DNA of 64,000 bases from an uncultured Gammaproteobacteria bacterium (GCA_963721085.1 CAVRHW010000031.1:65782-129781); one strand, 5' to 3'; positions 631-21,036 are shown, counted from the first letter of the stretch. Numbers and translations are program-made. Notes: generated by a model from the sequence alone, not told the origin.

Positions 631-1071
631 ATGTCCGAGTATCGCCATATTGCCTGCCCAAAATGCGCCGCCAAAAACCGCGTGCCCGTTGCCAGACTGG
701 GCGCTGGCGGTAACTGCGGAAAATGCGGCACGCCTTTATTCAACCAGCACCCGATCGAGCTGACCACCGCCAATTTTGACCGCATGATCAATAACCATGA
801 CATTCCGGTGCTGGTGGATTTCTGGGCGCCCTGGTGCGGGCCGTGCAAAATGATGGCGCCCGCTTTTGAACAGGCCGCGCAAAAACTGGAACCTCAATTG
901 CGGCTGGCAAAGCTGAATACTGAAAATGAACAGGCGATTGCAGCGCGTTTTAATATTCGCAGCATTCCTACGCTGGCAATCTTTAAGAACGGGCGCATCA
1001 TCGCCCAGCAGGCGGGAGCGATGAATCTTGATGGTCTGTTATCCTGGGCACGCGCAAACGTTTCGCGCTAA
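631..1071 (+). CDS. trxC: thioredoxin 2 (TrxC type, with N-terminal zinc-finger extension)
   Basis: 146 aa. N-terminal CPKC...CGKC cysteine pairs are followed by a thioredoxin fold with the WCGPC active site. Confidence 0.9.
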   Translation: MSEYRHIACPKCAAKNRVPVARLGAGGNCGKCGTPLFNQHPIELTTANFDRMINNHDIPVLVDFWAPWCGPCKMMAPAFEQAAQKLEPQLRLAKLNTENEQAIAARFNIRSIPTLAIFKNGRIIAQQAGAMNLDGLLSWARANVSR

Positions 1072-2396
1072 CTCGCTGACAGAGTATCACGCATCGTGCG
1101 CAGCGCATCTCTGAAACGTTTCGGATCGAAGCGGTCTTCGTTGTCCAGCGTCCGGTAAAGCTCCTTGATTTCTTTTTTAATGCTGGCCTTGCGCGGATTG
1201 CTGAATGGCGCCATTTTGTCCCATGACACGGTCAGCGCACTGATCGCCATCGCAGCCTGTTCGGCAGCGACATAATTTCTGTACTCGCCCCAGACACCTT
1301 CATTCAGCAAACTCAGTGATATTTTCTGAATATCGTTTGCGCTGAACTTGTGTGGCATTATCTTCTCCTTGATCTCTTTTACCAGCGTCTGCATTTCACT
1401 CACTTTTTCATCCAGGGCCGCGTAACCCTCAGTCGAAGCAATATGCATTTCCTTGATCATGGTTTTAAGCTTCCATGCCAGCGCCGCATCGACTGGCACC
1501 GCAACGTTTCGCAGCATCAGCAAACTCGAATCATTAATGGTCACTACCCCCGGGCCAAGGCCGGTGCCGCGTCTTGGCGCCCAGGTTTTTTTCGACATGG
1601 AATGATGACAGCTCTGGCAATCGAACAGACTCAGTTCCGGGAACAGCTTGCCTGTTTGCATGCGATCACTTTTCAGCATTTTTAGCATTGCCTCGGCAGC
1701 GACCACCTGCCCAACCGCCCAGACCTTGACGTGGCTATACGCGATCTTGCGTTCACTATAATCCTTGTCCTGGACAAAATGTGGCGGCTGCAGTGCGCTG
1801 TAGGTATCCATCTCAAAGCTGATACGCGGATGGCCTGCGCCCATAATGTCATGACTGACAAACTGGTGCTTGTTGCCATAATGACATGACAGGCACACCC
1901 GGGTGCGCAGCACGATGTTGTCATTCGGATACAGGCCCTTCGCCACGTTATCTTTATGTGTGGCTTTTTTACTGGTGTGTGTTTTTAACCATTTCTCAGA
2001 ACCGCCGTGACATGCCTCACAACCGATACCGTCTTCTATGTGAAACTTTTTACCGCGAAATTTTTCGGCCACGTAGCTGGCATGGCAGACCAGGCAGGCA
2101 GGTTCTTTATAAGCCGGTTTCATCCCCAGTTTTGTCGTGATGTCAGTAAACTGTTTACCGAACATTTTTTTATACGACTGGCTGTGCGGATCTTTTCTTT
2201 CCCAGGTAATGTATTCGTTGTGCAAAATGTTCGAGTGCTGATAAGCCAGAACAGAACCATGGCAATTACTGCCCGCGCAGGTGGACACGCCTTCGTGCAC
2301 ATATCCGTCCTGCAGCGGCAATGGCGGCTCGCCTGCTGCGTGGCTTATTGTGCTGGTGAGCAGTAAAGCAAAACTGATGCATAGCTTATTTAGCAT
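1068..2396 (-). CDS. multihaem c-type cytochrome (4 CXXCH + 1 CX4CH) with helical C-terminal domain
   Basis: 442 aa. Signal peptide MLNKLCISFALLLTSTISHA. Haem motifs CAGSNCH, CLVCH, CEACH, CLSCH, CQSCH. The C-terminal ~170 aa are K/E-rich and helical, with no haem motif. The ATG overlaps the upstream stop by 11 nt. Confidence 0.85.
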   Translation of the reverse strand: MLNKLCISFALLLTSTISHAAGEPPLPLQDGYVHEGVSTCAGSNCHGSVLAYQHSNILHNEYITWERKDPHSQSYKKMFGKQFTDITTKLGMKPAYKEPACLVCHASYVAEKFRGKKFHIEDGIGCEACHGGSEKWLKTHTSKKATHKDNVAKGLYPNDNIVLRTRVCLSCHYGNKHQFVSHDIMGAGHPRISFEMDTYSALQPPHFVQDKDYSERKIAYSHVKVWAVGQVVAAEAMLKMLKSDRMQTGKLFPELSLFDCQSCHHSMSKKTWAPRRGTGLGPGVVTINDSSLLMLRNVAVPVDAALAWKLKTMIKEMHIASTEGYAALDEKVSEMQTLVKEIKEKIMPHKFSANDIQKISLSLLNEGVWGEYRNYVAAEQAAMAISALTVSWDKMAPFSNPRKASIKKEIKELYRTLDNEDRFDPKRFRDALRTMRDTLSAS

Positions 2397-5300
2397 TTGT
2401 CACCCTGTCGTTGACGGTCCAGACTTTTCCGTTTTTATCCAGATATAATTTCTGCATTTCCTCAAGAGTGAAAGGCCGGGAACCAAGACGCCCGAACACT
2501 GCGATCTGGTTGCCAGTTTCATCCACCGCCCGGTCACGATCAAGCCCCTTGGATAAGGACAGGGCCGGCGCGCCTGTCGGATAGGTCGCAATCAGTTGCG
2601 GGTGCGGTTGCGGACTAAAACCGTAGAAATCCGGCTGGCTGTCCGGCGATGTCATTTGCAGCACTTTCAGACCATTTTTACCGTCGGCAACATAACCGAT
2701 CAAACTGGCGTTTGTGGTCGCCACGATCACATCGCGCGCATCGTTTAATTTGCCGTCCGCGGTAAATAACTGCACCAGCTTCGGTTGCTCGGCTTTTTCA
2801 ACATCGATAATTGCAAGTCCCTGTTTACCAGCAGCGACATAGGCATAGGTCCGCGCCACATAAACACGGTGCGCATCTTTCAGTCTCACCAGCGCTCTGG
2901 TGATGCGCGGTTTGTCCGGATGGGTTACATCAACCACTTTCAGGCCATCTGCATCGGTGACGAACAGATATCTGAATTGCAGGCTGGTCGCGCGCGCTGT
3001 TTTGAGATTGATCACCGACGCCACTTTGGGTGCCAGTGGATTATCCAGATTGACTACCACGATACCGGCATCGGCTGCGATGTAAGCATAATAACCGCCG
3101 ATGGTGATATGTCGTGCGCCGTTCAGGATTCCGTTCGGGTTCCAGGTGAGCGCACGCTTGAGAAAATTATTACGCGCATCGCCATCGGCCATGGTATCTA
3201 CATTGGTTAAAATCAGCCCTTCCTTGCTATCGGTGATCAATGCGTAGTTATAGATGGGATGCATTGCCTGTTCTTCATCATCCACCCGCACGATCTTACG
3301 TGCATTGCGTACCGGATCGATCATCTGGTTTGTTGGCAACGCAATGCAGGTAGCATCACTGGTTTCTATATGTGTGTCGTGTCCAGCCGAGCTGTAAGGC
3401 GCGGTGATAATACGTTGCGCAACGCCCTTGTTGGCAATACTGGCAACATCGTATACCTGCACACCGTTCTTGCCCTGTGCTACGTATACATACTCGCCGC
3501 GTAACTGCAGACAGCGGGTCTCGCCGGAATCGTGCGTGTAGGCCTGCTTCAGTACCCGATTATTATCAAGGTGTTGTTGATAGAAATCCGGATACGCATA
3601 TTTCTGCAAATAGCTGCCGATCACTGCCTGCGGTTCATCCCATTCGGTCACGCGTACCGCTTCGATGTCCTGCTCGGTACCCACCCAGGCATTCAGGCCC
3701 ACAAAGTTGACAAAGTTGGTACCCAGCAATAACAACTGCGACATGATGGCATTGTTATCATCAGCATCCGAAATATGGCAATCGGTGCAGGTTTTTGTTT
3801 CTGTTAACCGTACAGTGTGTGGAAAATGCGGCGCGAAAGCCTGCGAACTAAAACCAGCGCTGGAAATGGGCGGCTGCTGCACATATATATGTTCACGATT
3901 GGCATTGGTCGATGACAGCACCAGCGCAGAGGATGATCGTACTGGCGCGATGCGACCGTCTTTTAACGGCCCGCGTTTGCCCAGCTGGAACATCTGGTCA
4001 CGCGCCACCTGTGGGTTATAAGTTGCGTAGTTCCGCGTCTCGCCACCTTCAAAATGCAGGCGCGGTGTTTTGTTGTTGGCTTCTATCGGCAGATGACAGC
4101 CGCCGCAACTGGTGGTCCATGAAGTATGACAGGAATAACATGTCATTTTGCTGTTGCTGTGCGCACGGTCCTTCGGTTTAACGCCCAGCCCCCAGGCCTG
4201 GGTGCTGGTGTTTGTGCTCATTAGTTTGGCGCGCGCGGATCGTGCATTGTAATGTTTACTTTTTGGATTCACCGCATCCTTGACCAGACTCATTTCCCAT
4301 TGCAGTCCTGGTGTCAGCATCGAGCGCTGGTACAGTTTTCCATTGATCCATTGAAAACGTTTTCTGCCATCGGGGTTGCGCAATAAAGTCAGATCGGTGC
4401 CACCGGGAGGGGCCGCCGGGCCCGAGGTGCGCAAACTGGGATACGCATCCGCAGTGCCATGGCAGTCCTTGCATGTGATCTCGACCGCAGCCGCGACTTC
4501 ACCGTGAATATTTCCGGTGCCATGACTGTCCTGTGCAAAATGGCAGTCAACACAATGCATGCCCTTGTCCATGTGAATCGACGCCATGTGCACGGCCTTG
4601 CGGAATTTATCCGGGTCCTTGTCATCCACGATCTTGCCATTCTTGTCGAGCAGATGGCCATGACGATCACGTTTGAACACCGCGCGGAAATTCCAGCCGT
4701 GGCCGTGATAATCCGCAAACTGGGTGTCTTTCAGTTCTGGATTCAGATCACGCACATTACGCAAAAAGGTTTCATCCGCCCATTTACCACGCGGCGCGGC
4801 GCCTTCCGGGTTGCGCTTGTAAACTTCACGCAGCTCGGCGGCGGTTGGATACTTCTGTTTTTTCGGCCACATGAACGGTGCATCGGATTCATAATCCCAC
4901 ATGGTGTAACCCATGAAGGTATTCATGAACATATTCGGCTGGTGCATGTGACAGGTCATGCACTGCGATGTCGGTATCGAACGCGTGAAGCTGTGCCTGA
5001 TCGGATGCCCTTCCTGGTGCTTCGGGATAGTAGGATCGATGGTCTCGGTAGTGCCGGTATGACCATCGATACTATACGGACCCGAATGTAACGGATCGCG
5101 ATCATTAGCGTATACGCTGTGGCAGCCTGCGCAACCCGATTGACGATAATCACCCGGCTGATCGTTGGTACCCATAAACCACATATGTGGATCATTCAAA
5201 CGTGTTTTGGTGAGATTGATCAGCGGTACCGCAATACGTCCCCCGGTGCCAGGGCCGCGATTGGACTGTTTAAAATCCGGGCGACCATCTTCTTCCAGTT

Positions 5301-6129
5301 TTTGCAATTCGCCTGATACGTTTGGAATACCGACTTCGGGAAATACATTGCCGAGGTTGCGGCCGCCATTTTCAAACACGCGGAAAATATCGGCAGGGGG
5401 CGTGACTTCCCAGGCAGGCAAAGGATAGAGCGCCGGCAGCACGCCTCGCGCCAGCATTTTTGCATCGGGCTCCTGCGGATTCAGGATCTCGGCAGGCGTG
5501 CCATCGCGCATATAGCTTTCACCCAGAATGTAATGCTTCAGCGGCAGGATGCCGTTGTTATAAGACGCGCCGCCCCAGAGCATCGCCGAGGTACTCATTA
5601 AACTACGTTTTGCCGCATCGATGATTTGCTGGTGACAGGCACCACAGGCTTCATCGGCGACACGGTAATCTGATGGATTAACAAAACGAACAAACTCGGG
5701 GCTTTCGCGATTCAACAAGGTGTAGCTGCTGCGCGGATTGGCACTCGACGGCAGATGCCAGGCATCAGGATAGCGCGGCAGCACATGCGCTTTTTCCATG
5801 GCCCGCAAATAAGCGACGTCTTTCTGTTTTGTGCCAGTCGGTTTTAATATCTTACTATCGCCGCCATGACAGTCGATACAGGCCAGGTTCACGTCTCCGC
5901 TTGGGTGCATCGTGGGCGAATCGGTTTTCGTGTGGCAACTCACACAACCCGTGTTTTTGGCGTCTACCTCTGCGGGCAACTGCGAAGCCGGTGCGTTCGG
6001 CGCAGTGACATAATGTCGCTCGACAGGATGTTCACCTTCCGATGCATAAACATTCATCACAGGCATTAGCAGGCCTATGCAGGCACAAAGCGCTAACCGT
6101 TTTAATACTATGTAAGTTCTATATTTCAT
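2386..6129 (-). CDS. decahaem c-type cytochrome fused to a C-terminal LVIVD-repeat beta-propeller
   Basis: 1247 aa with an N-terminal signal/anchor (LALCACIGLLMPVMNVYA). Ten CXXCH motifs: CVSCH, CIDCH, CGACH, CAGCH, CMTCH, CVDCH, CKDCH, CYSCH, CGGCH, CTDCH. The C-terminal ~430 aa carry repeated LVIVD-type blades (YVYVAQGKNGVQVYDV, YAYIAADAGIVVVNLDNP, YLFVTDADGLKVVDVTHP, YAYVAAGKQGLAIIDVEK, GYVADGKNGLKVLQM). Confidence 0.85.
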   Translation of the reverse strand: MKYRTYIVLKRLALCACIGLLMPVMNVYASEGEHPVERHYVTAPNAPASQLPAEVDAKNTGCVSCHTKTDSPTMHPSGDVNLACIDCHGGDSKILKPTGTKQKDVAYLRAMEKAHVLPRYPDAWHLPSSANPRSSYTLLNRESPEFVRFVNPSDYRVADEACGACHQQIIDAAKRSLMSTSAMLWGGASYNNGILPLKHYILGESYMRDGTPAEILNPQEPDAKMLARGVLPALYPLPAWEVTPPADIFRVFENGGRNLGNVFPEVGIPNVSGELQKLEEDGRPDFKQSNRGPGTGGRIAVPLINLTKTRLNDPHMWFMGTNDQPGDYRQSGCAGCHSVYANDRDPLHSGPYSIDGHTGTTETIDPTIPKHQEGHPIRHSFTRSIPTSQCMTCHMHQPNMFMNTFMGYTMWDYESDAPFMWPKKQKYPTAAELREVYKRNPEGAAPRGKWADETFLRNVRDLNPELKDTQFADYHGHGWNFRAVFKRDRHGHLLDKNGKIVDDKDPDKFRKAVHMASIHMDKGMHCVDCHFAQDSHGTGNIHGEVAAAVEITCKDCHGTADAYPSLRTSGPAAPPGGTDLTLLRNPDGRKRFQWINGKLYQRSMLTPGLQWEMSLVKDAVNPKSKHYNARSARAKLMSTNTSTQAWGLGVKPKDRAHSNSKMTCYSCHTSWTTSCGGCHLPIEANNKTPRLHFEGGETRNYATYNPQVARDQMFQLGKRGPLKDGRIAPVRSSSALVLSSTNANREHIYVQQPPISSAGFSSQAFAPHFPHTVRLTETKTCTDCHISDADDNNAIMSQLLLLGTNFVNFVGLNAWVGTEQDIEAVRVTEWDEPQAVIGSYLQKYAYPDFYQQHLDNNRVLKQAYTHDSGETRCLQLRGEYVYVAQGKNGVQVYDVASIANKGVAQRIITAPYSSAGHDTHIETSDATCIALPTNQMIDPVRNARKIVRVDDEEQAMHPIYNYALITDSKEGLILTNVDTMADGDARNNFLKRALTWNPNGILNGARHITIGGYYAYIAADAGIVVVNLDNPLAPKVASVINLKTARATSLQFRYLFVTDADGLKVVDVTHPDKPRITRALVRLKDAHRVYVARTYAYVAAGKQGLAIIDVEKAEQPKLVQLFTADGKLNDARDVIVATTNASLIGYVADGKNGLKVLQMTSPDSQPDFYGFSPQPHPQLIATYPTGAPALSLSKGLDRDRAVDETGNQIAVFGRLGSRPFTLEEMQKLYLDKNGKVWTVNDRVTNAK

Positions 6130-6207: not shown

Positions 6208-7950
6208 TTAATACCTGAACACAAAATTACCCAGCACGCTGTAATCCAGCGTATCGCCAAACATCTGTTTGTAGCCCTTGCCCGGTACCAGCACCGCGGC
6301 TGACAAACGCAGCACAATATTCTGGCTGTACAGGGGCCGATAAATACTGGCCAGCGAAACATCCCAGCCGATATCGTTGCTGATATTACCCTGATTCCGC
6401 GCTGCTTCGAGCACTGCGGTGTTATCAAACCAGAGATGATTAATATTGGTGGTGAGGCGCAATAATGGAGTCACGTCAAAATCCATTCCATAACCGATTA
6501 AACGTATGCCCGGGTTGGTAAAATTGGACTGCCCCTCTTCTTTTGAGGAACGCATCGAATTCAGCAGGCCGTTACGTCCCGACAGCGCAACACCACCGCC
6601 ACCAATATTGGCCACCGGCTGCCGAATCCAGAAACTGGTGTCCGCACCTGCAATCAGGGGATTTTCCAGAATCGAATCGAAACCGGTGGAGCGGTCATCG
6701 TAAGGATTTTTATCGCCACTACCGTATACCAGCGACAGGCGCGCACGAATCCAGTCGTAATCGCGGGCCAGTTCGGCCGCCGCAAAAAATGCGCTGATAC
6801 GTGATGGCTGAATACTGAAGGTACTGTGGTTTTCATTGCCGCTGACGTAATAAGTAGAAACACTAACATCAGTTCTACCAAAATGCCCGTCACCGTTATA
6901 CCCGAGATAAGTCACCTGGTATTCGCGCAACTGCTCGGTTCCGAGCGATGCCGGCCTGACCAGAAATCCGTTGTTGTCGTAATAATTATCTTTGTTCTCG
7001 CGATTGATGTTGTGTATCAACGACAGCTCAGAAGTGAAGCCAGGTGTCGGAAAATCCTGTCGATAAATATTCGCAACGAATACATCATCATCGCGCAGCG
7101 GTTTAGTCGTATCATTCAGTCCGCTGTTGGTGTCTTTTTCAATGCGGCGGAACCAGGCGATGTTGTACTGATAGATATTATTATCGCGGGTTCCAAAAAG
7201 GCGAATCCCGACCGGGTTGTCTATAAACAGGAAACCGCGAAAATCCGCGGTGAATGGTTGAACGCCTACACGCACACTGTCAAAGTCATAGCGCTCCGAA
7301 ACATTGCGCAAATGCTTGTCGATATACAGGTCCTGAATACCCACATGAGAATCCTGGCGCGTCTCACCCTGGTTGGGATCAATCGACAGAACGCGTAATT
7401 CCTCCGTGCGCACATAGTTTGAATTTACTACGGCAGTAAATCGGTATTCATAATCCGGTGGACGGAAAATGGTATCGCCCTTGTAATAATCTGCGCTGAT
7501 TATGAAGTTCTGGTTCAGCACCAGCTGGTCACCGCTGCCGATCACATCAATACTGCCGGGATTATTCGTGGTGGCAGGCCCCACCGGTGTCGGTAAACGC
7601 CGCGGCTCGATGACACTGTCAGAGATCAGTGACAGATCTAAAAACCAGTCATCATGAACTGGCTTATCGCCTTTCAGTGTGTTCTGGTGATAGGGGTCGT
7701 ACCAGTGTTCTTTGGTGACACCCAGGGTGTCGAGCAAACGCCAGCGATCGGGTACCGGTATCGACTCGCGTTTCAGATCAGGGCCCGGCGGTTCGATCGC
7801 ACCCGGATTATATACTGGTGCTGAACCCGAGGAACGTTCCGTGCTCGCACCCGGACGTTGCCGTTGCCAGTCATCATCTGCATGGCTTGCAGTCGCCGAT
7901 AATAAAATGGCGATGCTGATAGTTAATACGGATGCTCGCTTATTTACCAT
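6208..7950 (-). CDS. outer-membrane beta-barrel protein, function unknown
   Basis: This is the frame of ORF 6208..8091. My preferred start, ATG 7950, gives signal peptide MVNKRASVLTISIAILLSATASHA-DDDW. The sequence is long, rich in alternating-hydrophobic strands and in Y/F/W/G/N/D, and ends ...NFVFRY (aromatic C-terminus typical of OM barrels). The start overlaps the upstream stop by 11 nt. Confidence 0.7.
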   Translation of the reverse strand: MVNKRASVLTISIAILLSATASHADDDWQRQRPGASTERSSGSAPVYNPGAIEPPGPDLKRESIPVPDRWRLLDTLGVTKEHWYDPYHQNTLKGDKPVHDDWFLDLSLISDSVIEPRRLPTPVGPATTNNPGSIDVIGSGDQLVLNQNFIISADYYKGDTIFRPPDYEYRFTAVVNSNYVRTEELRVLSIDPNQGETRQDSHVGIQDLYIDKHLRNVSERYDFDSVRVGVQPFTADFRGFLFIDNPVGIRLFGTRDNNIYQYNIAWFRRIEKDTNSGLNDTTKPLRDDDVFVANIYRQDFPTPGFTSELSLIHNINRENKDNYYDNNGFLVRPASLGTEQLREYQVTYLGYNGDGHFGRTDVSVSTYYVSGNENHSTFSIQPSRISAFFAAAELARDYDWIRARLSLVYGSGDKNPYDDRSTGFDSILENPLIAGADTSFWIRQPVANIGGGGVALSGRNGLLNSMRSSKEEGQSNFTNPGIRLIGYGMDFDVTPLLRLTTNINHLWFDNTAVLEAARNQGNISNDIGWDVSLASIYRPLYSQNIVLRLSAAVLVPGKGYKQMFGDTLDYSVLGNFVFRY

Positions 7951-9868
7951 GGCAAACATCTGTTTCGGTTGAATCCAGGAACGGTGACTGCGGGCACTGC
8001 ACAAACCGCAGGTGTATACCCATTGGCGCAAGATTATCGGCGCGCATCGCTGCCGGTGCATTATTGATGGTGCCCAGTATTGCACTGGCATTGTTCAGGC
8101 CAAGAAATGAAACCATGTCATCCTGATCGACGCCATCGCCGGAAACACCAATGCCGCCGACCAGAATATTGCCACGATAAATCGGCACGCTACCTGGAAA
8201 CACCTGCATGCCATTGGCAAGTCGGCTCAGCGTGGTACAGTTTTGCGGCGCATCCGGGCCGCCACCTTTGACATAAACCACGTGCTGAATAACGCGGTTC
8301 ATCACCAGGTCAAGCTGCATACCGTCGGAAAACGGGCTCCATTCGCTGATCGGTTTGCTAAACGGGCCGTTGACCGAACCAACCGTGCCGTCCGGAAAAA
8401 ACGGGCGCGACAGATTGCCGCCGGAACGGTCGGCAAAGGCATATGCACCATCGGCCAGTGCGGTCGGTGCGCCGAGAAAATTTCGCACCGCAGACACATA
8501 ATCAGCAATGCTGATCTGGATGCCGCTCGGGCTCGCATCCGGATTTCTATAAATCGTGTTCGGTACCGCGCTCAGTTCAGCCGCGCCGTGGGTGCCGGAA
8601 AAAAAAGTTGCGGTGCGCGCTTTCTGCAGAGACACGTCGGTACCGAACACCGGGCCATCACGCGTGCGCGCAATACCCAGTATTTTGCCATTGGTATCAA
8701 CCACCGACACGGTGACGCGCGCCTGGCTGCCCAGCGGCCGGCGAATTTGTGAACGCGCGCGATTTGCGACTGCCAGCGCACTGCTGATCAGCTGTTTCAC
8801 TTCGCTGGCAGACAATGCATTCGCGCCATCACTGCCCGCAGTCGGCGGGAAGCGATTCACATTGCTGTTATCGACCAGCACAAAAGCATCCAGCCCGGGA
8901 TAATCAACCGGGTCTGCGCGTATCCCCGAATCGGGCTGACCAAAGGCCTTGCCATCGATCACTGCGCCTGCGGTATAACCGGTCACTGCCTGCAGACTGC
9001 CTGCACTGCCATCGATGCTGGCAAAACTGGGCGCATTGCCCGGCGTTGTCGCCAGGTCAGAAAAATCGACGTCAGAGAACCGCGCCACCTTGCCGTCCAG
9101 TGTAATCTTTTCTCTGCGATCAACCGGCGCGGCAAAACCATAACTGCCGGCGACTGCAATCAGTTCATCGATATTGCGATCGCGATCGTTGGTATTCAGA
9201 TCCAGTCCATAGACACCATCCGCAATCACACCAATACCACCGACCAGCGCGCCGTTTTTATATAAAGGCAGACCACCGGGGTCGGCGGACAAACCCAGCG
9301 GCGTGCGATGCGGTCCGGCATCTGCACCTGCGCTAAAGCGCGTATTCAGATCCGAACAGGGTAAATTACTGAACTGCACGCCGAACAAAGGGCCGCCCGG
9401 CTGGCCGGTTTCACCTGGATTAAAATGTTCCTGCACGATCTGGCTGGCGGTTCGCGTACTAAAGGCATTGCCTTCGGATGACAGATAGGCACCTGTCATC
9501 GCTTTTGAAATCGCGGCCAGGGTATCCGGGATCACATTGATGCCTTCCAGACCACCGCTGACATTGCGTCCCGAATCAATGGTGATATCGGTCGATGCCG
9601 AATTCATTCTGAATACCGCGAGCACGTTGCCCACGCGATCGACAACCGCAATGGTCCCCGCAACGCCCTGCGCCTGCGCTTCTGTCACCGCCTGAGCAAT
9701 AATGGTTTCGGTTTCGGCAACACTGAGAAAACTGCTGGCATTGGTGCAGCTACCGTTGCACTCTACTGCTCCCGCGCCGGTACCTGCTGTCGAATCACCA
9801 TTGCCACTGCTGCAGGAGAGCAGAACACTCAGCACACCAAAACAACCGGCTTTGAGAATGCTATTCAT
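7940..9868 (-). CDS. lipoprotein with two GlcG/HbpS-like (DUF336, haem-binding/degrading family) domains
   Basis: Frame of ORF 7940..9883. ATG at 9868 gives MNSILKAGCFGVLSVLLSC-SS (lipobox LLSC). There are two copies of the DUF336 signature: PLYKNGALVGGIGVIADG, and PIYRGNILVGGIGVSGDGVDQDDMVS preceded by VVDRVGNVLAVFRM / VVDTNGKILGIARTRDG. The start overlaps the upstream stop by 8 nt. Confidence 0.7.
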   Translation of the reverse strand: MNSILKAGCFGVLSVLLSCSSGNGDSTAGTGAGAVECNGSCTNASSFLSVAETETIIAQAVTEAQAQGVAGTIAVVDRVGNVLAVFRMNSASTDITIDSGRNVSGGLEGINVIPDTLAAISKAMTGAYLSSEGNAFSTRTASQIVQEHFNPGETGQPGGPLFGVQFSNLPCSDLNTRFSAGADAGPHRTPLGLSADPGGLPLYKNGALVGGIGVIADGVYGLDLNTNDRDRNIDELIAVAGSYGFAAPVDRREKITLDGKVARFSDVDFSDLATTPGNAPSFASIDGSAGSLQAVTGYTAGAVIDGKAFGQPDSGIRADPVDYPGLDAFVLVDNSNVNRFPPTAGSDGANALSASEVKQLISSALAVANRARSQIRRPLGSQARVTVSVVDTNGKILGIARTRDGPVFGTDVSLQKARTATFFSGTHGAAELSAVPNTIYRNPDASPSGIQISIADYVSAVRNFLGAPTALADGAYAFADRSGGNLSRPFFPDGTVGSVNGPFSKPISEWSPFSDGMQLDLVMNRVIQHVVYVKGGGPDAPQNCTTLSRLANGMQVFPGSVPIYRGNILVGGIGVSGDGVDQDDMVSFLGLNNASAILGTINNAPAAMRADNLAPMGIHLRFVQCPQSPFLDSTETDVCHGK

Positions 9869-11561
9869 TGTTCGTACGCACATCGCTGTTGCCCATCAGC
9901 AAAGTGTCGGGCTCATGAAATTTATGACAGGTAATACAGGTCGATGCCAGCTTGTCGCTACTATGCGCACCGCCGTGGCAGTCGCGACAGACCTTGATTC
10001 CTGGCAACAACACATCTTCACTGCTCTTTGACTCTTTCGCCTTATGGCAGTCTTCGCATTTTGAATTGCGATGCGCGCGATGATCAAATTCACCCTTGCT
10101 GAACCAGCGCTGCGAAATATGCACCTTTGGAATTCGCCAGCCATATTCTGCAGTCGGGTCACGCATCACCTTGTGGCACAGATTGCAGCTACGAAACTCG
10201 ATCACTTCTTCTTTAACATCGGCGGCCTTGTCTTTTGCCCAGGCCATCGCGGTTTTCATTTCTTTCGGTGTTAATGTTTTTCCCGGAATGCGTCTTTTCC
10301 TGACGATGTCGGGCGCCGGGAAATCGGTGTCCTGATAATTTCCCCTCAGCGCCATGAATGCGTAAAACTCATTTAACATCGAGGTCATGGTGCCCAGGTC
10401 GGCGTGAGGCAATTGTCGATCGGGAGCGTTCTGATCAAAGTCCAGGCGATGACATTCCTGACAGTGCACTTCCATCTGGATGGGCAGCATATAATTGCCA
10501 CTGGCATCGGTTTGATGACAGCTGCTGCAATTGAGCACCCGGTTTCCTGTCGGACTATCCACACCATTTACATCGAGATGCACCTTGTGTGAAAAAATCA
10601 GCCCGGTTTCCTGTTTAAGCCCGGGTGTATCCAGACTGACACGGTGCCACACCGGTTTACCGATACCCGGGTCGATATCAGTTAGCAGACGCGGCCGGAA
10701 CTCGACATGATGTTTTCCAAAATCTTCAATATCAGCCAGTTTTGTTTCTGTTAGCTTGCTCAAATGCTCATGACAGTTGCTGCATAAAGCCTGATCCTGT
10801 CTTACCAGAAATGCTGTGCCCTTGTGTTCCTGATGACAGTCGGTACAGCTGGCATGTGTTAATTGCCTGATATTGAATATCTCGGGGTCCGCATGTACCG
10901 TGACATCTTTATGGCATGCGAGACAGGCCGCGTTTTTTACTTTTTGAAATGGTTTTACATGGCAGGCATTGCAGTTACTGGCGAAATGTTTGTGCTGCGA
11001 ACTGATTTCACCACTCAGCCAGAGACCGTCATCAGGTGCAACCGGTATTTTGTGCAACAGCTTGCCTGTGTCCTGATTAAAAAATCCGGCCATAGGGACA
11101 ATAAGGCATAATAGCAATATCAGCACGAAGCCAGTCCAGGCAGCACGACGCCGACTTAACCAGGTGTCTTCCAGCTTTCTTGCCGTCTGGTGCTCACTCT
11201 GAACATCAACAATGTCGTCGTATACCTGCTCGACGGTAATGTCGATATCAATGGGTGCAGCGCCAGGTTCGACCGTAATCCTGTAAGGACCCACCTGTAT
11301 TTCGCCGCGCCCTTTGAACGAACCGCTTTGCGAAAAACGGCCGTTAACATGAAGCCCGGCCTTGCTCAGCGAAGTAACACCAACCTGGCCATTTCCCGCA
11401 ACGGTGAGCTGCGCGTGCTGGTAAGCCACACCCAGATCGGAAAGAAAAATGTCCTGGTCGGTCGCACGGCCGATACTGATGACCGCTTTATTGAGCACCT
11501 GTTCATTCTGAACAATTGTGCCTTTGCGTTTATGAACAATATGACGAATACGTGTTTGCAT
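9861..11561 (-). CDS. FHA-domain, single-pass membrane-anchored decahaem c-type cytochrome
   Basis: 566 aa. The N-terminal ~100 aa are FHA-like (ISIGRATDQDIFLSDLGVAYQHAQL...LHVNGR). A positive-inside TM follows (SRRRAAWTGFVLILLLCLIVPMAGFF). Then ten CXXCH motifs: CNACH, CLACH, CTDCH, CSNCH, CSSCH, CQECH, CNLCH, CEDCH, CRDCH, CITCH. Confidence 0.85.
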   Translation of the reverse strand: MQTRIRHIVHKRKGTIVQNEQVLNKAVISIGRATDQDIFLSDLGVAYQHAQLTVAGNGQVGVTSLSKAGLHVNGRFSQSGSFKGRGEIQVGPYRITVEPGAAPIDIDITVEQVYDDIVDVQSEHQTARKLEDTWLSRRRAAWTGFVLILLLCLIVPMAGFFNQDTGKLLHKIPVAPDDGLWLSGEISSQHKHFASNCNACHVKPFQKVKNAACLACHKDVTVHADPEIFNIRQLTHASCTDCHQEHKGTAFLVRQDQALCSNCHEHLSKLTETKLADIEDFGKHHVEFRPRLLTDIDPGIGKPVWHRVSLDTPGLKQETGLIFSHKVHLDVNGVDSPTGNRVLNCSSCHQTDASGNYMLPIQMEVHCQECHRLDFDQNAPDRQLPHADLGTMTSMLNEFYAFMALRGNYQDTDFPAPDIVRKRRIPGKTLTPKEMKTAMAWAKDKAADVKEEVIEFRSCNLCHKVMRDPTAEYGWRIPKVHISQRWFSKGEFDHRAHRNSKCEDCHKAKESKSSEDVLLPGIKVCRDCHGGAHSSDKLASTCITCHKFHEPDTLLMGNSDVRTNNE

Positions 11562-11575
11562 GCTCTATTCGCCAG

Positions 11576-12472
11576 CTACCAGTAGAAAAATACGGAAATA
11601 ATATGCGCAATCAATGCCGCAAGCAGCGCAAATGACAGGGGCACATGAATGTACAGCCAGAGATCAAGATAGGCTTTATACTGCATATCACGACGTAGCT
11701 GCTCAACCAGGCGCTCTTTCTGGCCAATCAATAAATCAGTGAGCTGCAACATCGTCGCGCCGGTGTCGTCACTTTCTTTTGCAATACGGCTCGCCATAAA
11801 CGCCATGGTGCTATCAAGATCGCGTTTCTCCATTTTTTCCTGCTGATATTTTGCTTCCTGCACCAGCCCCTGCAGATCATCCGATTTTTTGCTGCCAAAC
11901 ACGATGTCAAAAACACTGCCGCCGAGACGCGTGCGCTGAATACTTTTCAACACGCGTTCGTGGGTTTCGGGATTAATTTCGCTGGCCAGCACAAGTGCCT
12001 GTCGGTCGATGTCCTGTATCTGGCGAATTAAAGAGTCGGGTGAAGATTCGCCACGGTTGTCGGTCATCAATGTCGGAAAATGCAGGTAACAATAAACGCC
12101 GTAAATGCCACTGAAAATAACCAGCATCATCAGCACGTAGGCCAGGGTGTGAACATTCCAGCCAAACTGGAACCCGGTGTGCAAGGTCGCGAGCACGATC
12201 AGCGCCAGCCCGAGATACACATGCGCCGACAACCAGCCCGCAGCGGTGCCCATGCTGGAGCGATAGCGACGTTTGCGTATACCGAACCACATCAACCAGA
12301 CAATCAATAACGCCGATATCGTGCCCAGGGTGTAACCCAGCCAGGTGCCGCCATTCGGCGGCATGGTGGGATTATCCAGCGCATAGGCCAGAATAGCGCC
12401 TGTGCACAGCGCCACGCTCCACCAGAGATAGCGCGAGCCACGGTAACTGAGGATTGTCTGGTGCATCGCCAT
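11576..12472 (-). CDS. integral membrane protein with two His-x13-His helices (candidate dihaem b-type transmembrane electron carrier)
   Basis: Frame of ORF 11576..12589. ATG at 12472 lies 2 nt after the upstream stop. I read about five hydrophobic helices. One is SAHVYLGLALIVLATLHTGF and another is YIHVPLSFALLAALIAHIISVFFYW, each with His at i and i+14. A ~120-aa polar loop lies between helices 4 and 5. Confidence 0.7.
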   Translation of the reverse strand: MAMHQTILSYRGSRYLWWSVALCTGAILAYALDNPTMPPNGGTWLGYTLGTISALLIVWLMWFGIRKRRYRSSMGTAAGWLSAHVYLGLALIVLATLHTGFQFGWNVHTLAYVLMMLVIFSGIYGVYCYLHFPTLMTDNRGESSPDSLIRQIQDIDRQALVLASEINPETHERVLKSIQRTRLGGSVFDIVFGSKKSDDLQGLVQEAKYQQEKMEKRDLDSTMAFMASRIAKESDDTGATMLQLTDLLIGQKERLVEQLRRDMQYKAYLDLWLYIHVPLSFALLAALIAHIISVFFYW

Positions 12473-12474
12473 GT

Positions 12475-14886
12475 TTATGAGCGCCCTGCGTAGTTCGCCA
12501 GCTGATCCGGCTTGATGCGTATCGCGGCACCGGTCGGGCAGGCGCGCACACAGGCCGCACCACCGCTGAGGTCTTTGCACATATCGCACTTCACTGCTTT
12601 TTTCACCGCCTCGCTATCTTTTTTGCCATAGCCTTTGGGCGCCTGGCCGGGGCCGGGGCCAATACCGAACAACAACCATGGGATCAGGCCCGGTTTTTTC
12701 GGTGGCTTTGTCGCCATCTGGATCACACCGTAGGGACAGTTGCGCTGACAGTTACCGCATCCGATACAGTTATCGGCAACATACACTTCGCCGTCGGGCG
12801 CACGCTTGATCGCATCGGGAGGACAATCCTTCATGCAGTGCGGATGCTCGCAATGACGACATGAAGTCGGCACATGAATCGCCGCATAGGTGGGGCCGGC
12901 TTCACGATCCAGCCGCGAGGTTCCATCGTGCGTTTCCGCGCAGGCTTTTTCACAATTGTCGCAACGAATGCACAGGGACTCATCGATCAATAATACATCG
13001 GTGGCTTCGCCAACCCCCTGGCTGACCAGGAAGGAAATAATGCTGTTGCCACCCTGCTGCTGCATGCGCAGATTATTTGAAACACGCTGCTTGTATTCTT
13101 TTTCGATGTTGCGCCTGAGCGCCTCATCCTGTTCGAGCAGATAACGAAACTCATCCGCGCCCAGTTCGATGGTTTCGGTCGCCGTGGCTGCGCGCACGGT
13201 TGCCGTACGGCGGCTTTTACCCATGATGCCCATTTCACCAACATAGTTGCCCGCGGGCAGATACGACATCACCACTTCGTGTTCGCCAAGACGGCGCGAA
13301 ATTGTTACCGATCCTCGCCGGATCACATGAAAGCTTTCTGCTTCATCGCCTTCATTAAACAATACTTCACCAGCGCGATATGACTGCAGTTTTGCCTTTT
13401 TGGCAATTGTTGCCAGGCTCTGAATCGGTGTGGTATTGGCAAATCGCGTCTGCAGGGTGCGCACAATAAACGCTTCGTCAATCGTGCGCTTCACCGACTC
13501 GACAGAGCTGATCAATTTATTCATCGAGCGCCGAGGCGTTTCGATCAACACACATTTTTTGCCTGCGCGTATGGTTGCCGAGCGACGACGACCAGACAAT
13601 AAACTCATTTCACCGAAAAACTGGCCCGGGGTTAACGCAATTGTTTTGTCAGGATCGTTCTCATCGATTTCAATCAGCACTTCACCGCTGATAATGCAGA
13701 AAAATGTATTGGTGTAATCATTTTTACGAAAAATATAATCGCCCGGGGAAGCAACATATATTTCACTGTCGAGAAAAAACTCACGTAACTGCAGAACCGT
13801 GAGGCCAGAAAGCAACGGCACTATCTTTCTGATTGAGCGTAATGCCTGGTTTACTGCGGGCTTGCCGGGTATTTTTTCAAACCGCGCCTTAAGCAAAGGC
13901 TCGTCTGCGGGCTCGACCGGATTGCCCTCAATGTATTCGACAACTTCGTATCCCTGGTTCATACATTGCTTGATCAGGGGGTAGCCGCCCAGCGCACCAA
14001 TAATATAAATGCCGGGCACATTGCTTTCGTATTGATCGGACAACTCGGGCACTGCACCGATATCTGCATTCGGAAAACGAATGCCGCAGGATTCAATGAA
14101 CTTGCGCGGCGGAATCGCGCCAAGACGTGCGATGATGCGATCGAAAGGCACTTCCGCTTCGCCTTCGGGTGTTTCCAGCACCAGTACGGCTTTTTGCGCG
14201 GCACCTTCGGGGCTCTGTTCGATGCGTACCGAATTGGCCTGATAAAAACATTCGATCACGCCTTTTTCGATCTTGTCGAGTATCGCGGCATTGTTCGCTT
14301 CCTTGGCGCGGGTGAACTCGGGCTGGCGATTCACTATATATACCGTATTGTGGCCACATAGCGCGAGCGCGTTTTCGATACCGGCATCGCCGCCGCCAAT
14401 GACAACAATATGTTCATCTTCGTATTCGTCAGGATCGTCCAGGGTGTATTGCACCAGTGGCGCTGCTTCCCCGGGAATACACAGCATACGTGGATTTCCC
14501 TGCACCCCCACGGCCAGAACGATATGCTCGGCGCGGATGGTTTCACCCTGTTTCAGGCTGATTTCGAATCCACCCTTGCTGCCACTGATCGCCGAAACTT
14601 CAGCATTGCATTTGAGATTGACCCGATGCGTGTCGATTCCGTGTTGCCAGGTATCCAGGACTTCTTCTCGTTTGGCGGCGGTGAACTTGATCGGACTGCG
14701 CAGCGGCAGCACACGCGGTTCGTCCATCACGTGCTTGCCTTTCTGGTAGTGGAATATGGTGTTACAGATATGAGGTTCAGCTTCGAGCAATATATGGTTA
14801 ATGCCCAGTTCTGCGGCACGTGAAGCCGCGCTCAGGCCACCGGGGCCCGAACCGATGATGGCGATTCGATAGTTGTTACCACCCAT
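12475..14886 (-). CDS. fusion protein: FAD/NAD(P)-binding pyridine-nucleotide-disulfide-oxidoreductase-like domain + two cyclic-nucleotide-binding domains + four-cluster [4Fe-4S] ferredoxin domain
   Basis: 803 aa.
- N-terminus: IAIIGSGPGGLSAA (dinucleotide fold) and a second GGGDAGIENA.
- Two cNMP signatures: FGEMSLLSGRRRSATIRA and VGEMGIMGKSRRTATVRA.
- C-terminal cluster motifs: CIRCDNCEKAC, CRHCEHPHCMKDCP, CIGCGNCQRNCP, CDMCKD...CVRACP.
- No signal peptide or TM. Confidence 0.85.
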   Translation of the reverse strand: MGGNNYRIAIIGSGPGGLSAASRAAELGINHILLEAEPHICNTIFHYQKGKHVMDEPRVLPLRSPIKFTAAKREEVLDTWQHGIDTHRVNLKCNAEVSAISGSKGGFEISLKQGETIRAEHIVLAVGVQGNPRMLCIPGEAAPLVQYTLDDPDEYEDEHIVVIGGGDAGIENALALCGHNTVYIVNRQPEFTRAKEANNAAILDKIEKGVIECFYQANSVRIEQSPEGAAQKAVLVLETPEGEAEVPFDRIIARLGAIPPRKFIESCGIRFPNADIGAVPELSDQYESNVPGIYIIGALGGYPLIKQCMNQGYEVVEYIEGNPVEPADEPLLKARFEKIPGKPAVNQALRSIRKIVPLLSGLTVLQLREFFLDSEIYVASPGDYIFRKNDYTNTFFCIISGEVLIEIDENDPDKTIALTPGQFFGEMSLLSGRRRSATIRAGKKCVLIETPRRSMNKLISSVESVKRTIDEAFIVRTLQTRFANTTPIQSLATIAKKAKLQSYRAGEVLFNEGDEAESFHVIRRGSVTISRRLGEHEVVMSYLPAGNYVGEMGIMGKSRRTATVRAATATETIELGADEFRYLLEQDEALRRNIEKEYKQRVSNNLRMQQQGGNSIISFLVSQGVGEATDVLLIDESLCIRCDNCEKACAETHDGTSRLDREAGPTYAAIHVPTSCRHCEHPHCMKDCPPDAIKRAPDGEVYVADNCIGCGNCQRNCPYGVIQMATKPPKKPGLIPWLLFGIGPGPGQAPKGYGKKDSEAVKKAVKCDMCKDLSGGAACVRACPTGAAIRIKPDQLANYAGRS

Positions 14887-16398: not shown

Positions 16399-17043
16399 GT
16401 GCACAGTGTTAACAGAACAATATGCCATTTATTTTTTATTCTTCTGCTAGTACCGGCCCTCAACCCGGCCTTTGCCAGCGATGCAAAAAATGAACTCCCG
16501 CCCGCCTGTCGCACCGACTGCGTTTCACCTTACGGCAGTGTTCTGGGCGCGGATTCAGATAAAGTAAAAGCCTATTCAAATTGCCAGTCGAACTGTGTGA
16601 TTTTCGAACCCAATAAATGGCACGGTACCTACACCGGTATCAAGTGGCAGTGCGTTGAATATGCGCGGCGCTGGTTACTCATTCACAAAGGCATGGTCTA
16701 TGGCGATGTTGATGTTGCTGCAGACATCTGGAACAAGATTGATCATCTCACGCGCGTGAGCACAAAAAAACAGGTGCCACTTAAATCCTATGTAAATGGC
16801 TCGATCCATGCACCCGAAGTGGGTGATTTACTGGTATATGCCAGGGCCTTTTATAATACCGGCCATGTTGCTGTGGTCACCGAAGTAGATTTAAAAAAAG
16901 GTTTGATAAAAGTCGGTGAGCAAAATTATAACAATAAGCCATGGCCTGGAAATTACGCTCGAAGTATCCAGCTCTACAAAAAAGGCGATCACTACTGGTT
17001 GCTGGATGCTTATATTCTGGGCTGGAAACACGCTGAAGGTTGA
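16399..17043 (+). CDS. secreted CHAP-domain protein (glutathionylspermidine-amidase-like cysteine amidohydrolase)
   Basis: GTG start 6 nt after AGGAG. Signal peptide ...LLLVPALNPAFA. Candidate catalytic Cys in WQCVEYARRWLL and His in TGHVAVV. Confidence 0.65.
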   Translation: MHSVNRTICHLFFILLLVPALNPAFASDAKNELPPACRTDCVSPYGSVLGADSDKVKAYSNCQSNCVIFEPNKWHGTYTGIKWQCVEYARRWLLIHKGMVYGDVDVAADIWNKIDHLTRVSTKKQVPLKSYVNGSIHAPEVGDLLVYARAFYNTGHVAVVTEVDLKKGLIKVGEQNYNNKPWPGNYARSIQLYKKGDHYWLLDAYILGWKHAEG

Positions 17044-19535: not shown

Positions 19536-21036
19536 ATGAAGAAGACGCAGCGCATTATCAATCGATTTCTGTCTTTGTCCCAGGCCGCTCGCCTCGCGGG
19601 TATCAAACGCCGCACTCTACAAAAACGCATTCAGGATGGGGACATCCTCACCTTTGAAGGCATGGTGTCGCTCGAAGAACTGCTCAAGGCCTACCCGCAG
19701 ACCGAAATCGAAGATAACACCATGATTGAGCATTCAAAACACATTAAGCATTCGGCCTACAACAAGCTGCTGCACGATGCCAGCAGCCTCCCTGATTCTG
19801 AAGTCACTCTCTACCCGCGTTACTGCGCTCAGCCAGGAACTCAGCGAAACACGTTCATTGGCTAAAAAATATGTCGAAATTGTCGATTCCCTGAAAACTC
19901 GGCTAGGCTCATTAGATGCCAGCCAGCAACAGCTGGACGCACTAAAGAACTGGCTCGAAGAAGCTACCGAAGCGCCGAGCGCCGATGTACAGGCTTCCGC
20001 ACAACTTATCGCAAATGATACTTTGTTACGACTTATGACTGCACATGTACGAATTCTACCCAGTGGCCATGACTTTTTTGTCGAGGGCACCTCCAGCCTG
20101 CTGGAAGCCGGGCTTCGCGCCGGGCTTGCGCTGAATTATGCATGCAGCAACGGCAATTGCGGCAAATGCAAGGCGCGACTGGTGTCTGGCCAAATCAAGC
20201 AGATCCAGCCGCACGATTACACGCTCAGTGAAGAACAGAAAGCCACTGGCCATTTCCTCATGTGCAGCAATGCTCCGGTCAACGATGTTGTGATCGAAGC
20301 CATCGAAGCCAGTAATGCGCGTGATATTCCGCAGCAGCAAATTACCGCCAAAGTGAAAAAAATTGAAATCAAGGATGATGTTGCTCTATTACATTTGCGC
20401 ACACCGCGGACGAATCGCCTTCGGTTTTTCGCCGGGCAGTACGTTAACCTGAGCATGGGCTCGGAATTTCCCAGCGCTGAATACTCGATCAGCAGCTGCC
20501 CATGTGATGATATGAACCTGCATTTTCAAATTCCTGAAACTGCGGATGACGCCTTTGCTGATTTTGTTTTCCACGATCTGAAAAGCGGTGACTCCATAGA
20601 TGTTGCGGGGCCTCGCGGTGATTTTGTGCTGGATGAAGACTCTGTGCGTTCACTGGTATTTATTGCCTGGCACACAGGTTTCGCGCCCATCAAAAGTCTC
20701 ATCGAGCATGCTATGGCGCTGGATGATGCTGAACACATACATTTATTCTGGATTACCGCGAAACCAGAAGACCGCTATCTCAATAATCTTTGTCGCGCCT
20801 GGCAGGATGCACTGGATAACTTTCATTACCACACTATTGATGCCGACCTGCTAAATGGTGGGGCGGGCGCACACCAGCAGGCGATGAATGCTGTCTTTGA
20901 TCAACTTGAAAATCACGCGGACCATGATTATTACATTGCCGGGCTGGACTCACTGACCACGGCCTGCAGCAATGTGGCGCAGCAGCGTGGCGTCCCTGCC
21001 ACACAAATTATGGGCGATGCCATCAAACACGAATAA
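19536..21036 (+). pseudogene. HTH + coiled-coil + plant-type [2Fe-2S] ferredoxin + FNR-like FAD/NAD(P) reductase; reads as one gene interrupted by a +1 frameshift near 19800-19865 (alternatively two genes)
   Basis: ORF 19536..19865 has an HTH-like N-terminus (LSLSQAARLAGIKRRTLQKRIQDG). ORF 19726..21036 continues it in the +1 frame: ...STRVTALSQELSETRSLAKKYVEIV, then CSNGNCGKCKARLVSG...MCSN (Cx4CxxC...C), then FNR motifs (AEYSISS, GPRGDF, AWHTGFAPI). Confidence 0.65.

Follow-up and report, generated by a model that had tools for sequence, protein, structure and literature searches.

A widespread decahaem cytochrome fused to an LVIVD-type beta-propeller, encoded in a conserved seven-gene operon with a predicted role in electron export

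A 64,000-nucleotide stretch of DNA from an uncultured Gammaproteobacteria bacterium (GCA_963721085.1, CAVRHW010000031.1:65782-129781; henceforth the window, with positions counted from its first letter) encodes, on its minus strand, a 1247-residue protein in which a decahaem cytochrome c is fused to an LVIVD-type beta-propeller. This protein, which we term A, is one of a very large and compact family that has yet to be named, and its gene is the sixth of a seven-gene operon (G-F-E-D-C-A-B) whose members all lie on the minus strand and are separated by gaps of at most 78 nucleotides or overlap. A is very widespread and highly conserved, and the seven genes probably specify a chain that leads from cytoplasmic NAD(P)H to the outer membrane, with A at its outer end. 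The more specific proposal is that A is exported and serves as the soluble output subunit of an electron-export chain that crosses the cell envelope, is fed by NAD(P)H and is gated by signals; for this we consider the case about evenly balanced. That multihaem cytochromes encoded beside an outer-membrane barrel move electrons through the envelope is already known. What is new here is the propeller fusion, a decahaem module of 800 residues with no solved relative, a predicted input from NAD(P)H via Fe-S clusters and b haems that bypasses quinones, and control by cyclic-nucleotide-binding (cNMP) and FHA domains.

Gene A is an uninterrupted open reading frame (ORF) of 1247 codons that occupies exactly 2386..6129 on the minus strand, the plus-strand reading of the same interval being full of stops, and it is matched over its full length by homologues with 63-81% identity. 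A sequence-only reading of the window had given the same coordinates and length, but had missed both the strand and the seven-gene context. The ORF opens with a signal peptide of the signal peptidase I (SPase-I) type (aa 1-29; 6043..6129, minus; MKYRTYIVLKRLALCACIGLLMPVMNVYA, with SEG following the predicted cleavage site), which is supported by a hydrophobic segment at aa 6-30 and lacks a lipobox. The homologues of A display the same signal pattern, A-x-A followed by S, and a lipobox-like match was seen in 3 of 64 of them; A thus carries an SPase-I signal instead of the lipoprotein signal of MtrC/OmcA-type cytochromes. In the database, the protein (P0001, 1226 aa) begins at Met22 and would thereby lack the signal peptide. 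As the start at 6129 yields an SPase-I signal (VYA before the cut and SEG after it), which a start at Met22 would not, we take the longer ORF to be the better gene model.

The decahaem module (aa 30-812; 3694..6042, minus) contains ten CXXCH motifs, against a mean of 0.024 and a maximum of 1 in 2000 shuffles of the same protein. These motifs account for 20 of the 24 cysteines in A, the other four lying elsewhere. From the N-terminus, and all on the minus strand, they are CVSCH (aa 62-66; 5932..5946), CIDCH (aa 84-88; 5866..5880), CGACH (aa 162-166; 5632..5646), CAGCH (aa 333-337; 5119..5133), CMTCH (aa 390-394; 4948..4962), which is followed by an invariant MHQPN, CVDCH (aa 526-530; 4540..4554), CKDCH (aa 553-557; 4459..4473), CYSCH (aa 664-668; 4126..4140), CGGCH (aa 675-679; 4093..4107) and CTDCH (aa 781-785; 3775..3789). 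All ten are kept in 78 of 81 orthologues and also in relatives with 40-50% identity; the third alternates between CXXCH and CX4CH (e.g., CGTAGCH) among homologues, the other nine being strictly CXXCH. In a 149-sequence alignment that spans two clades of the family, 13 histidines outside the motifs are invariant or nearly so (H75, H115, H375, H379, H396, H475, H477, H514, H519, H536, H657, H692 and H771). This number would suffice for ten bis-His haems with three histidines to spare, and hence it allows, but does not prove, bis-His ligation throughout. A thus shows the general hallmarks of a multihaem cytochrome c, namely several CXXCH motifs, an export signal and conserved candidates for the distal histidines.

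Structure prediction was carried out with AlphaFold2 (AF2) in two runs. The first, on aa 48-1247 with 64 close homologues, yielded a good propeller and a poor haem part (mean predicted local distance difference test score, pLDDT, of 62.9); the second, on aa 48-860 with the 149 sequences from the two clades, reached a pLDDT of 86.6 and a predicted template modelling score of 0.88. The second model shows strands in a beta-rich insertion between haems 9 and 10 (aa 682-767; 3829..4086, minus). A conserved loop at aa 257-294 (5248..5361, minus) stays below a pLDDT of 50 in both models; its invariant residues in the family alignment include E280, G282, D285, R291, G292, T295 and G296, and it is possibly a partner-binding segment or one that folds upon contact with a partner or a cofactor.

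The sequence-only reading had not recognised A as a named enzyme, and our searches likewise recovered no characterised homologue. Scans of the haem part with Pfam and NCBIfam models at E <= 0.01 returned, apart from the generic c3/c7/c554 motif families, just a weak and partial match to ExtM, and at the same threshold A matched no family model for HAO, Otr, MccA, NrfA or ONR; the models for MtrC/OmcA (TIGR03507) and DmsE/MtrA (TIGR03508) were not matched either. Precomputed matches to PF22113 exist for some homologues of A, and these are weak or faint. Searches of all PDB chains with A (phmmer) and with a profile of 64 sequences (hmmsearch) gave a best E-value of 0.32, on a c7-like motif. A Foldseek search of 350,542 PDB chains with the second AF2 model of the haem module produced no fold match (best E = 2.9), though models of coil-rich cytochromes without haems, which AF2 does not place, are hard Foldseek targets. 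Furthermore, A has neither a CXXCK motif as in NrfA nor a CX15CH motif as in MccA, its sole long C..CH span being formed by two adjacent CXXCH motifs. On these profile, PDB, motif and Foldseek tests, the decahaem module is not a detectable member of any characterised multihaem family and appears to be a fold without a solved relative. The relation to HAO/Otr/MccA-type proteins that had been suspected from sequence alone thus gains no support from any family model or fold match. We found no record of a fusion between a decahaem cytochrome and an LVIVD propeller in the literature; the LVIVD protein of Tenderiales, the Uet cluster, the extracellular electron transfer (EET) clusters from peat and the MtrAB-type cluster of Methylobacter were considered and set aside as systems different from the cluster of A.

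The sole family model that detects the haem module beyond the generic motif families is that of ExtM (NF040943; 75.7 bits, E = 2e-21), which matches A in part, best over aa 509-567 around haems 6 and 7, and falls short of its cut-off of 800 bits. ExtM (GSU2935) is encoded in the extHIJKLMNOPQS cluster of Geobacter sulfurreducens and its role has not been demonstrated; ExtKL of this cluster was recently shown to be a polysulfide reductase, ExtM being a neighbouring cytochrome. Like A, ExtM is a large periplasmic multihaem cytochrome whose gene lies near those for a porin-like protein and a membrane cytochrome b. Unlike A, it has 12 haems in about 600 residues and no propeller, and the ext operon has a Rieske/cytochrome b module where the operon of A encodes an NAD(P)H flavoprotein.

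The rest of A (aa 813-1247; 2389..3693, minus) is a beta-propeller with a C-terminal tail. The Pfam LVIVD model (PF08309) matches A with 54.7 bits (gathering threshold 20.2; E = 6e-15), and six copies of a repeat with the consensus Y-x-Y-V-A-x-G-x-x-G-L-x-V-V-D can be recognised on the minus strand: repeat 1 at aa 880-894 (3448..3492; YVYVAQGKNGVQVYD), repeat 2 at aa 962-976 (3202..3246), repeat 3 at aa 1014-1027 (3049..3090), repeat 4 at aa 1054-1067 (2929..2970), repeat 5 at aa 1095-1109 (2803..2847), which coincides with the best Pfam stretch at aa 1085-1110, and repeat 6 at aa 1143-1158 (2656..2703). AF2 models aa ~860-1200 as four-stranded blades, with the pLDDT of ten-residue blocks mostly at 80-97, and Foldseek matched the region to beta-propellers only (AztD, a YVTN S-layer propeller, LRP6 and WD40; E down to 5e-8). 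A seventh blade is probably closed by strands 813-826 and 1178-1192, so that the "at least five" blades of the sequence-only reading become six recognisable ones with a probable seventh, and the fusion of ten CXXCH motifs to an LVIVD propeller is borne out by the motif counts, the Pfam match and the predicted fold. That reading had named a characterised homologue and a failed propeller prediction as findings that would speak against it, and we encountered neither.

Beyond aa 785 no histidine or cysteine is conserved across the clades. We therefore set aside a catalytic metal site in the propeller and regard a docking role as at least as likely as the binding of a substrate. This also distinguishes A from enzymes such as the cd1 nitrite reductase NirS, the quinohaemoprotein dehydrogenases with pyrroloquinoline quinone (PQQ), hydrazine synthase and N2O reductase (N2OR), which similarly join a haem domain to a seven- or eight-bladed propeller and so provide precedents for the wired propeller of the sequence-only reading: the propeller of A is of the LVIVD/YVTN type, lacks a clade-wide histidine or cysteine to hold a cofactor, and has its best structural matches in AztD and the YVTN S-layer propeller rather than in the cytochrome-linked enzymes. 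No Pfam or NCBIfam model of NirS cd1, PQQ dehydrogenase, hydrazine synthase or N2OR was matched by A at E <= 0.01.

More than 7,900 database proteins match A at E <= 1e-5. The best 120 of these are about 1,200-1,320 residues long, align over 96-100% of the query with 65-81% identity, and are all named "hypothetical" or "LVIVD repeat-containing" in their sources. A scan of one genome per GTDB species confirmed at least 599 loci with relatives of A, the best 80 of which encode full-length proteins with 63-69% identity and derive from Gamma-, Beta- and Alphaproteobacteria, Acidobacteriota and Bacteroidia. Isolates that carry such relatives include Parahaliea maris, Limnobacter alexandrii, Fontimonas, Sphingoaurantiacus capsulatus and Hyphococcus, and metagenome-assembled genomes with them are labelled Methylobacter, Woeseiaceae and Steroidobacteraceae. 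The compactness of the family is also seen in the mean column identity of 66% in a 64-sequence alignment, and in an exhaustive HMMER search of 50%-identity representatives that returned only about fifteen full-length clusters, 40-65% identical. A second, divergent clade with about 40-47% identity to A is found in Planctomycetes, KSB1, Acidobacteria, Nitrospirota and candidate phyla.

To assess operon conservation, the proteins of the window were searched with tblastn against 81 related loci. C was detected in 80 of these, D in 67, E in 62, G in 61, and F and B in 59 each, with most absences falling at contig ends, and an all-against-all clustering of the ORFs in the related loci recovered exactly these seven families as recurrent. 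C lies directly upstream of A in all but one of its 80 loci. The identity to the window proteins across loci is 62-69% for A, 40-62% for C, 44-60% for D, 43-74% for G, 37-50% for F, 31-49% for B and 27-43% for E, which makes A the most conserved protein of the operon in this comparison. Three loci of the divergent clade, where A is about 40% identical, again place a homologue of C (25-29% identical) immediately upstream of A; homologues of F, E and a split G are present in two of the three, with D being absent. The input module is rearranged in this clade (L084, 4278-8168; L082, 15628-17259 and 21457-23546). The split version of G comprises one protein with cNMP and Fer4 domains and another with Pyr_redox and FHA, and in part Fer2, domains, and a single gene call of 1296 residues contains three FHA domains together with an E-like haem region and a Pyr_redox domain, possibly as a result of a gene-calling merge.

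A direct partnership is indicated for E and A by a metagenomic homologue of A (P0131, 1648 aa), which bears an N-terminal extension of ~530 residues with 18 further CXXCH motifs, giving 28 in all. In alignment, this extension corresponds to the opening part of E's periplasmic haem domain, making the protein a natural E-A fusion; by the Rosetta-stone argument, E and A would be direct partners in the same compartment. The SPase-I signal without a lipobox, this fusion to an E-type chain, whose counterpart in the window is anchored in the inner membrane, and the highest conservation within the cluster together place A at the periplasmic face of the outer membrane, as we infer, rather than on the cell surface, where the sequence-only reading had tentatively put it.

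Gene C, directly upstream of A (6208..7959, minus), codes for about 583 residues, counted from Met45 of an ORF that runs to 8091, and its product is putatively a beta-barrel of the outer membrane that represents a new family. The barrel assignment follows from a signal peptide, a C-terminal tyrosine or phenylalanine in 75 of 76 orthologues and the UniRef name of one orthologue, "Alginate export domain-containing". Pfam scans of 44 orthologues and a profile search of the PDB assigned C to no family, the lone weak match being one of Alginate_exp to a single orthologue; a count of amphipathic beta-strands (26, versus 22 +/- 4 in shuffles) was no better than shuffles and was discarded. A putative barrel gene thus adjoins, and is co-inherited with, the gene for cytochrome A, as in porin-cytochrome conduits. 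On the other side of A, overlapping its end by 11 nucleotides, gene B (1068..2396, minus) encodes an exported c554-like cytochrome of 442 residues with four CXXCH motifs and one CX4CH, a pattern retained in 51 of 54 orthologues. Gene D (7940..9883, minus) encodes a 647-residue lipoprotein (lipobox LLSC, followed by SSG) with HbpS/GlcG-like (DUF336) domains (Pfam HbpS-like, E = 1e-20) and PDB matches to EfgA and HbpS-type proteins; its lipobox and a glycine-rich tether are found in at least 38 of 61 orthologues. A variant cluster without D occurs in L003, L008, L019, L052 and L057, from genomes labelled Steroidobacteraceae, Methylobacter, Methylococcales and uncultured Gammaproteobacteria, and C is 40-51% identical in these variant loci versus 47-62% in other loci.

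The first three genes of the operon (G-F-E; 9861-14886, minus) are predicted to specify a module that exports electrons from NAD(P)H to the periplasm, and may represent a general module that serves different terminal proteins. Gene G (12475..14886, minus) encodes a cytoplasmic protein of 803 residues. Its FAD-NAD(P) domain is TrxR/YpdA-like but has no CXXC redox disulfide, and it is accompanied by two domains for cNMP binding and by one of the HycB/DmsB type that holds four [4Fe-4S] cysteine motifs. The cNMP domains (aa ~490-630) match the Pycsar-effector models of PADLOC (PycTIR, E = 5e-24). A defence-system reading, which nearby kinases and a caspase-like gene in L001 might suggest, was set aside, PADLOC having matched only these cNMP domains of G, a shared domain. 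Gene F (11576..12472, minus) encodes a five-helix membrane protein of 298 residues from Met40, with weak similarity to cytochrome b561 and DUF4405. Four histidines (H84, H98, H276 and H290) are conserved at 93-98% in 60 orthologues of F and form two pairs, H84/H98 and H276/H290, each exactly 14 residues apart and located in helices 3 and 5 as read from the sequence. By the positive-inside rule, each pair would have one histidine close to the cytoplasmic face of the membrane and one close to its periplasmic face, as is classical for two stacked b haems. Gene E (9861..11561, minus) encodes 566 residues with an N-terminal FHA domain, one membrane helix at aa 138-165 and ten CXXCH motifs; this plan, with the helix ahead of the first haem, recurs in 48 of 50 orthologues.

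Independent support comes from a preprint on Ferrigenium straubiae, which notes a similar and uncharacterised trio made up of a protein with [4Fe-4S], a membrane protein with five helices and an FHA-nonahaem cytochrome, and which describes fusions of FHA to multihaem cytochromes as previously unreported (10.64898/2026.01.22.701106). Compared by description, this is the same three-part inner-membrane module as G-F-E, inclusive of the FHA-multihaem fusion; it differs in having nine haems, an Fe-S protein described without flavin or cNMP domains, and no A/C-type pair in the description.

Put together, these features suggest the following route. Electrons from NAD(P)H would enter the FAD of G and pass to its four [4Fe-4S] clusters, with the two cNMP domains acting as a gate. 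The five-helix F would then carry them over the inner membrane through two stacked b haems, and the helix-anchored decahaem E would relay them through the periplasm, its cytoplasmic FHA domain coupling the chain to Ser/Thr-phosphorylation signalling. At the outer membrane A and the pentahaem B would take up the electrons, with the seven-bladed propeller of A docking the haem chain onto the barrel C and, where present, the lipoprotein D. Discharge would be to an oxidant at or beyond the outer membrane, for which a metal oxide, an organic acceptor and O2 are candidates. An outward direction is favoured because electrons that cross the membrane from its N to its P side move with the membrane potential. 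Such export conserves no energy and drains reducing power, which fits the built-in controls by cNMP, FHA and kinase/phosphatase proteins. With regard to the latter, genes flanking the operon in a minority of the 81 loci encode a PP2C phosphatase (16 loci), a double-FHA protein (14) and a Ser/Thr kinase (8), and CcmH recurs in 13 loci; examples of the phosphatase, double-FHA and kinase genes are seen at L001 (14988-17069 and 19509-21023), L020 (9112-9942), L026 (15939-16922) and L023 (21305-22690), and they fit phospho-threonine control via the FHA domain of E.

The same components could be read in reverse, as an electron-uptake or lithotrophic module in which A oxidises an extracellular or periplasmic donor and G reduces NAD(P)+ or a cytoplasmic substrate. 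Ferredoxin-NADP reductases of the TrxR type are reversible, a four-cluster ferredoxin paired to a di-haem b protein resembles NarH/NarI, where the flow is inward, and the G-F-E-like trio of Ferrigenium belongs to an Fe(II) oxidiser. We nevertheless hold this direction to be highly improbable: the flow would oppose the membrane potential, reduction of NAD(P)+ would require a donor near -320 mV, which is unlikely among typical environmental donors, and most of the hosts are not known lithotrophs.

Another reading would keep the outward flow and make the cluster an ordinary respiratory conduit of the Mtr/Pcc type for anaerobic reduction of metals or electrodes, fed by quinol via F, with G being only a regulator. 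As in MtrCAB/Pcc of Shewanella and Geobacter, decahaem cytochromes are encoded beside an outer-membrane barrel, the haem chain is long enough to span the periplasm and the outer membrane, and the whole locus apparently moves horizontally. The c-type haems of the present cluster number about 25 in total. Moreover, the cytochrome b561 and DUF4405 families that F resembles are often quinone-reactive, and the family of A is found in taxa from sediment, soil and low-oxygen settings. Yet Pfam and NCBIfam scans of the cluster detected no NapC/CymA, NrfD or bc-type quinol dehydrogenase, and G, whose NAD(P)H-flavin domain is complete and is joined by four Fe-S clusters, has the makings of a full dehydrogenase wire and not a regulator fold. 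A itself shows no sequence or fold relationship to the MtrCAB/Pcc proteins, going unmatched by TIGR03507 and TIGR03508 as C does by MtrB/PioB-type models; it is not a lipoprotein and carries the fused propeller, and its chain has a predicted NAD(P)H/Fe-S/haem-b input instead of quinol oxidation via CymA or Cbc, along with built-in cNMP and FHA regulation. The named isolates Limnobacter, Parahaliea and Sphingoaurantiacus belong to genera of aerobic heterotrophs. Finally, MtrC/Omc-type surface cytochromes are reported to be highly diverse (PMC12977616), unlike the highly conserved A. On balance we regard an ordinary conduit of this kind as unlikely.

Several observations weigh against the signal-gated export chain with A as its output subunit. 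The conservation of A (62-69% identity) relative to the wire-like E (27-43%) is unusual for a mere electron carrier, and so extreme a conservation suggests either catalysis or a very tight complex. The three or more spare histidines, with H375, H379, H475 and H477 as candidates, could form an active or metal site. C is not matched to MtrB/PioB-type barrels, and its lone family hint, the weak Alginate_exp match, suggests a barrel too narrow to hold a cytochrome. F could alternatively be a quinol-oxidising cytochrome b, in which case the input would come from the quinone pool instead of NAD(P)H.

Some of these points, the conservation above all, speak for the chief alternative, in which A would be a true periplasmic redox enzyme, i.e., a new multihaem reductase or oxidase whose substrate enters via C as a dedicated channel. 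Catalysis would then take place at one of the haems, at a site formed by spare histidines or in the central channel of the propeller, with G-F-E and B merely supplying or removing electrons. A protein of 1,250 residues that holds a plateau of 63-69% identity over Proteobacteria, Acidobacteriota and Bacteroidia, at a mean column identity of 66%, would be in keeping with this, as would the greater conservation of A, C and D than of the wire E, the spare conserved histidines, the long conserved insertions such as TMWDYESD and FADYHGHGWNF (the latter, quoted in the sequence-only reading, is indeed present at aa 471) and an 800-residue haem module that has no PDB fold match, unlike a simple c3/c7-type wire. 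The sole family hint for C is a narrow AlgE-type barrel, and the Geobacter ext cluster (ExtI/ExtKL) offers a precedent in which a porin gene lies beside a periplasmic multihaem enzyme with multihaem feeders; enzymes that unite a cytochrome with a propeller are also known, among them cd1 nitrite reductase, the quinohaemoprotein dehydrogenases and hydrazine synthase.

Against such an enzyme, A has no atypical haem motif, it remains unmatched at E <= 0.01 by the models for NrfA, HAO, Otr, MccA, cd1, PQQ and N2OR, its propeller lacks a clade-wide histidine or cysteine, its conserved histidines suffice for ten bis-His haems, and the obvious partners B and D are dispensable in divergent clades. The "enzyme module" that the sequence-only reading had seen in the haem part finds no backing in a CXXCK motif, a CX15CH motif or a model of a catalytic family, and we consider a dedicated enzyme possible but doubtful.

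Returning to the export chain, its logic resembles that of the NADPH oxidases and ferric reductases (NOX/FRE) and of the flavin-based EET of Listeria (Ndh2-EetAB-PplA), to which we detected no homology. In all of these NAD(P)H is oxidised in the cytoplasm, two stacked bis-His b haems would be held on two helices by paired histidines, and the export would conserve no energy and need tight regulation. The present system, by contrast, divides dehydrogenase, b-haem protein and acceptor among separate proteins, and it continues after the b-haem step with about 25 c-type haems and a component of the outer membrane. The cluster might be a bacterial multihaem counterpart of NADPH oxidase and ferric reductase, exporting electrons over both membranes, independent of quinones and gated by signals (cNMP, FHA/phospho-threonine, kinases and PP2C), with A as a new kind of terminal reductase; this is a speculative view in which we place rather low confidence. 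Within it, A might serve in regulated extracellular superoxide production or metal reduction, or act catalytically on another substrate, and the device would be present in hundreds of mostly aerobic species.

Among the uncharacterised multihaem proteins seen here, the family of A ranks as one of the more widespread, and many of its hosts are not considered electroactive. If the proposed export chain is correct, it would constitute a new route by which cytoplasmic reducing power reaches the cell envelope while bypassing the quinone pool, under control by second messengers and phosphorylation. It would bear on the unexplained production of extracellular superoxide by heterotrophs, on the reduction of metals and humic substances in oxic-anoxic transition zones, and on redox balancing under oxygen limitation. 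As cultured hosts exist, among them Limnobacter alexandrii LZ-4, Parahaliea maris HSLHS9, Pseudohalioglobus lutimaris, Kineobactrum salinum and Sphingoaurantiacus capsulatus KCTC 42644, the proposal is directly testable.

The surroundings of the operon in the window are not conserved with it. Its neighbours there, all on the plus strand, encode a thioredoxin-2 whose N-terminus bears a zinc ribbon (631-1071), a secreted protein with a CHAP domain (16399-17043) and a reductase in which a long N-terminal extension accompanies Fer2 and NAD-binding domains (19726-21036). A promoter and terminator scan returned fewer promoter-like sites than in shuffles and terminator-like sites within one standard deviation of the shuffle mean. 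Farther along, the plus-strand gene for isoleucyl-tRNA synthetase (42328-45158) is split over three frames (42328-43275, about 43200-43650 and 43620-45158), implying two frameshifts in an essential gene; these most likely reflect assembly indels in a metagenome-derived contig, with a pseudogene as the alternative.

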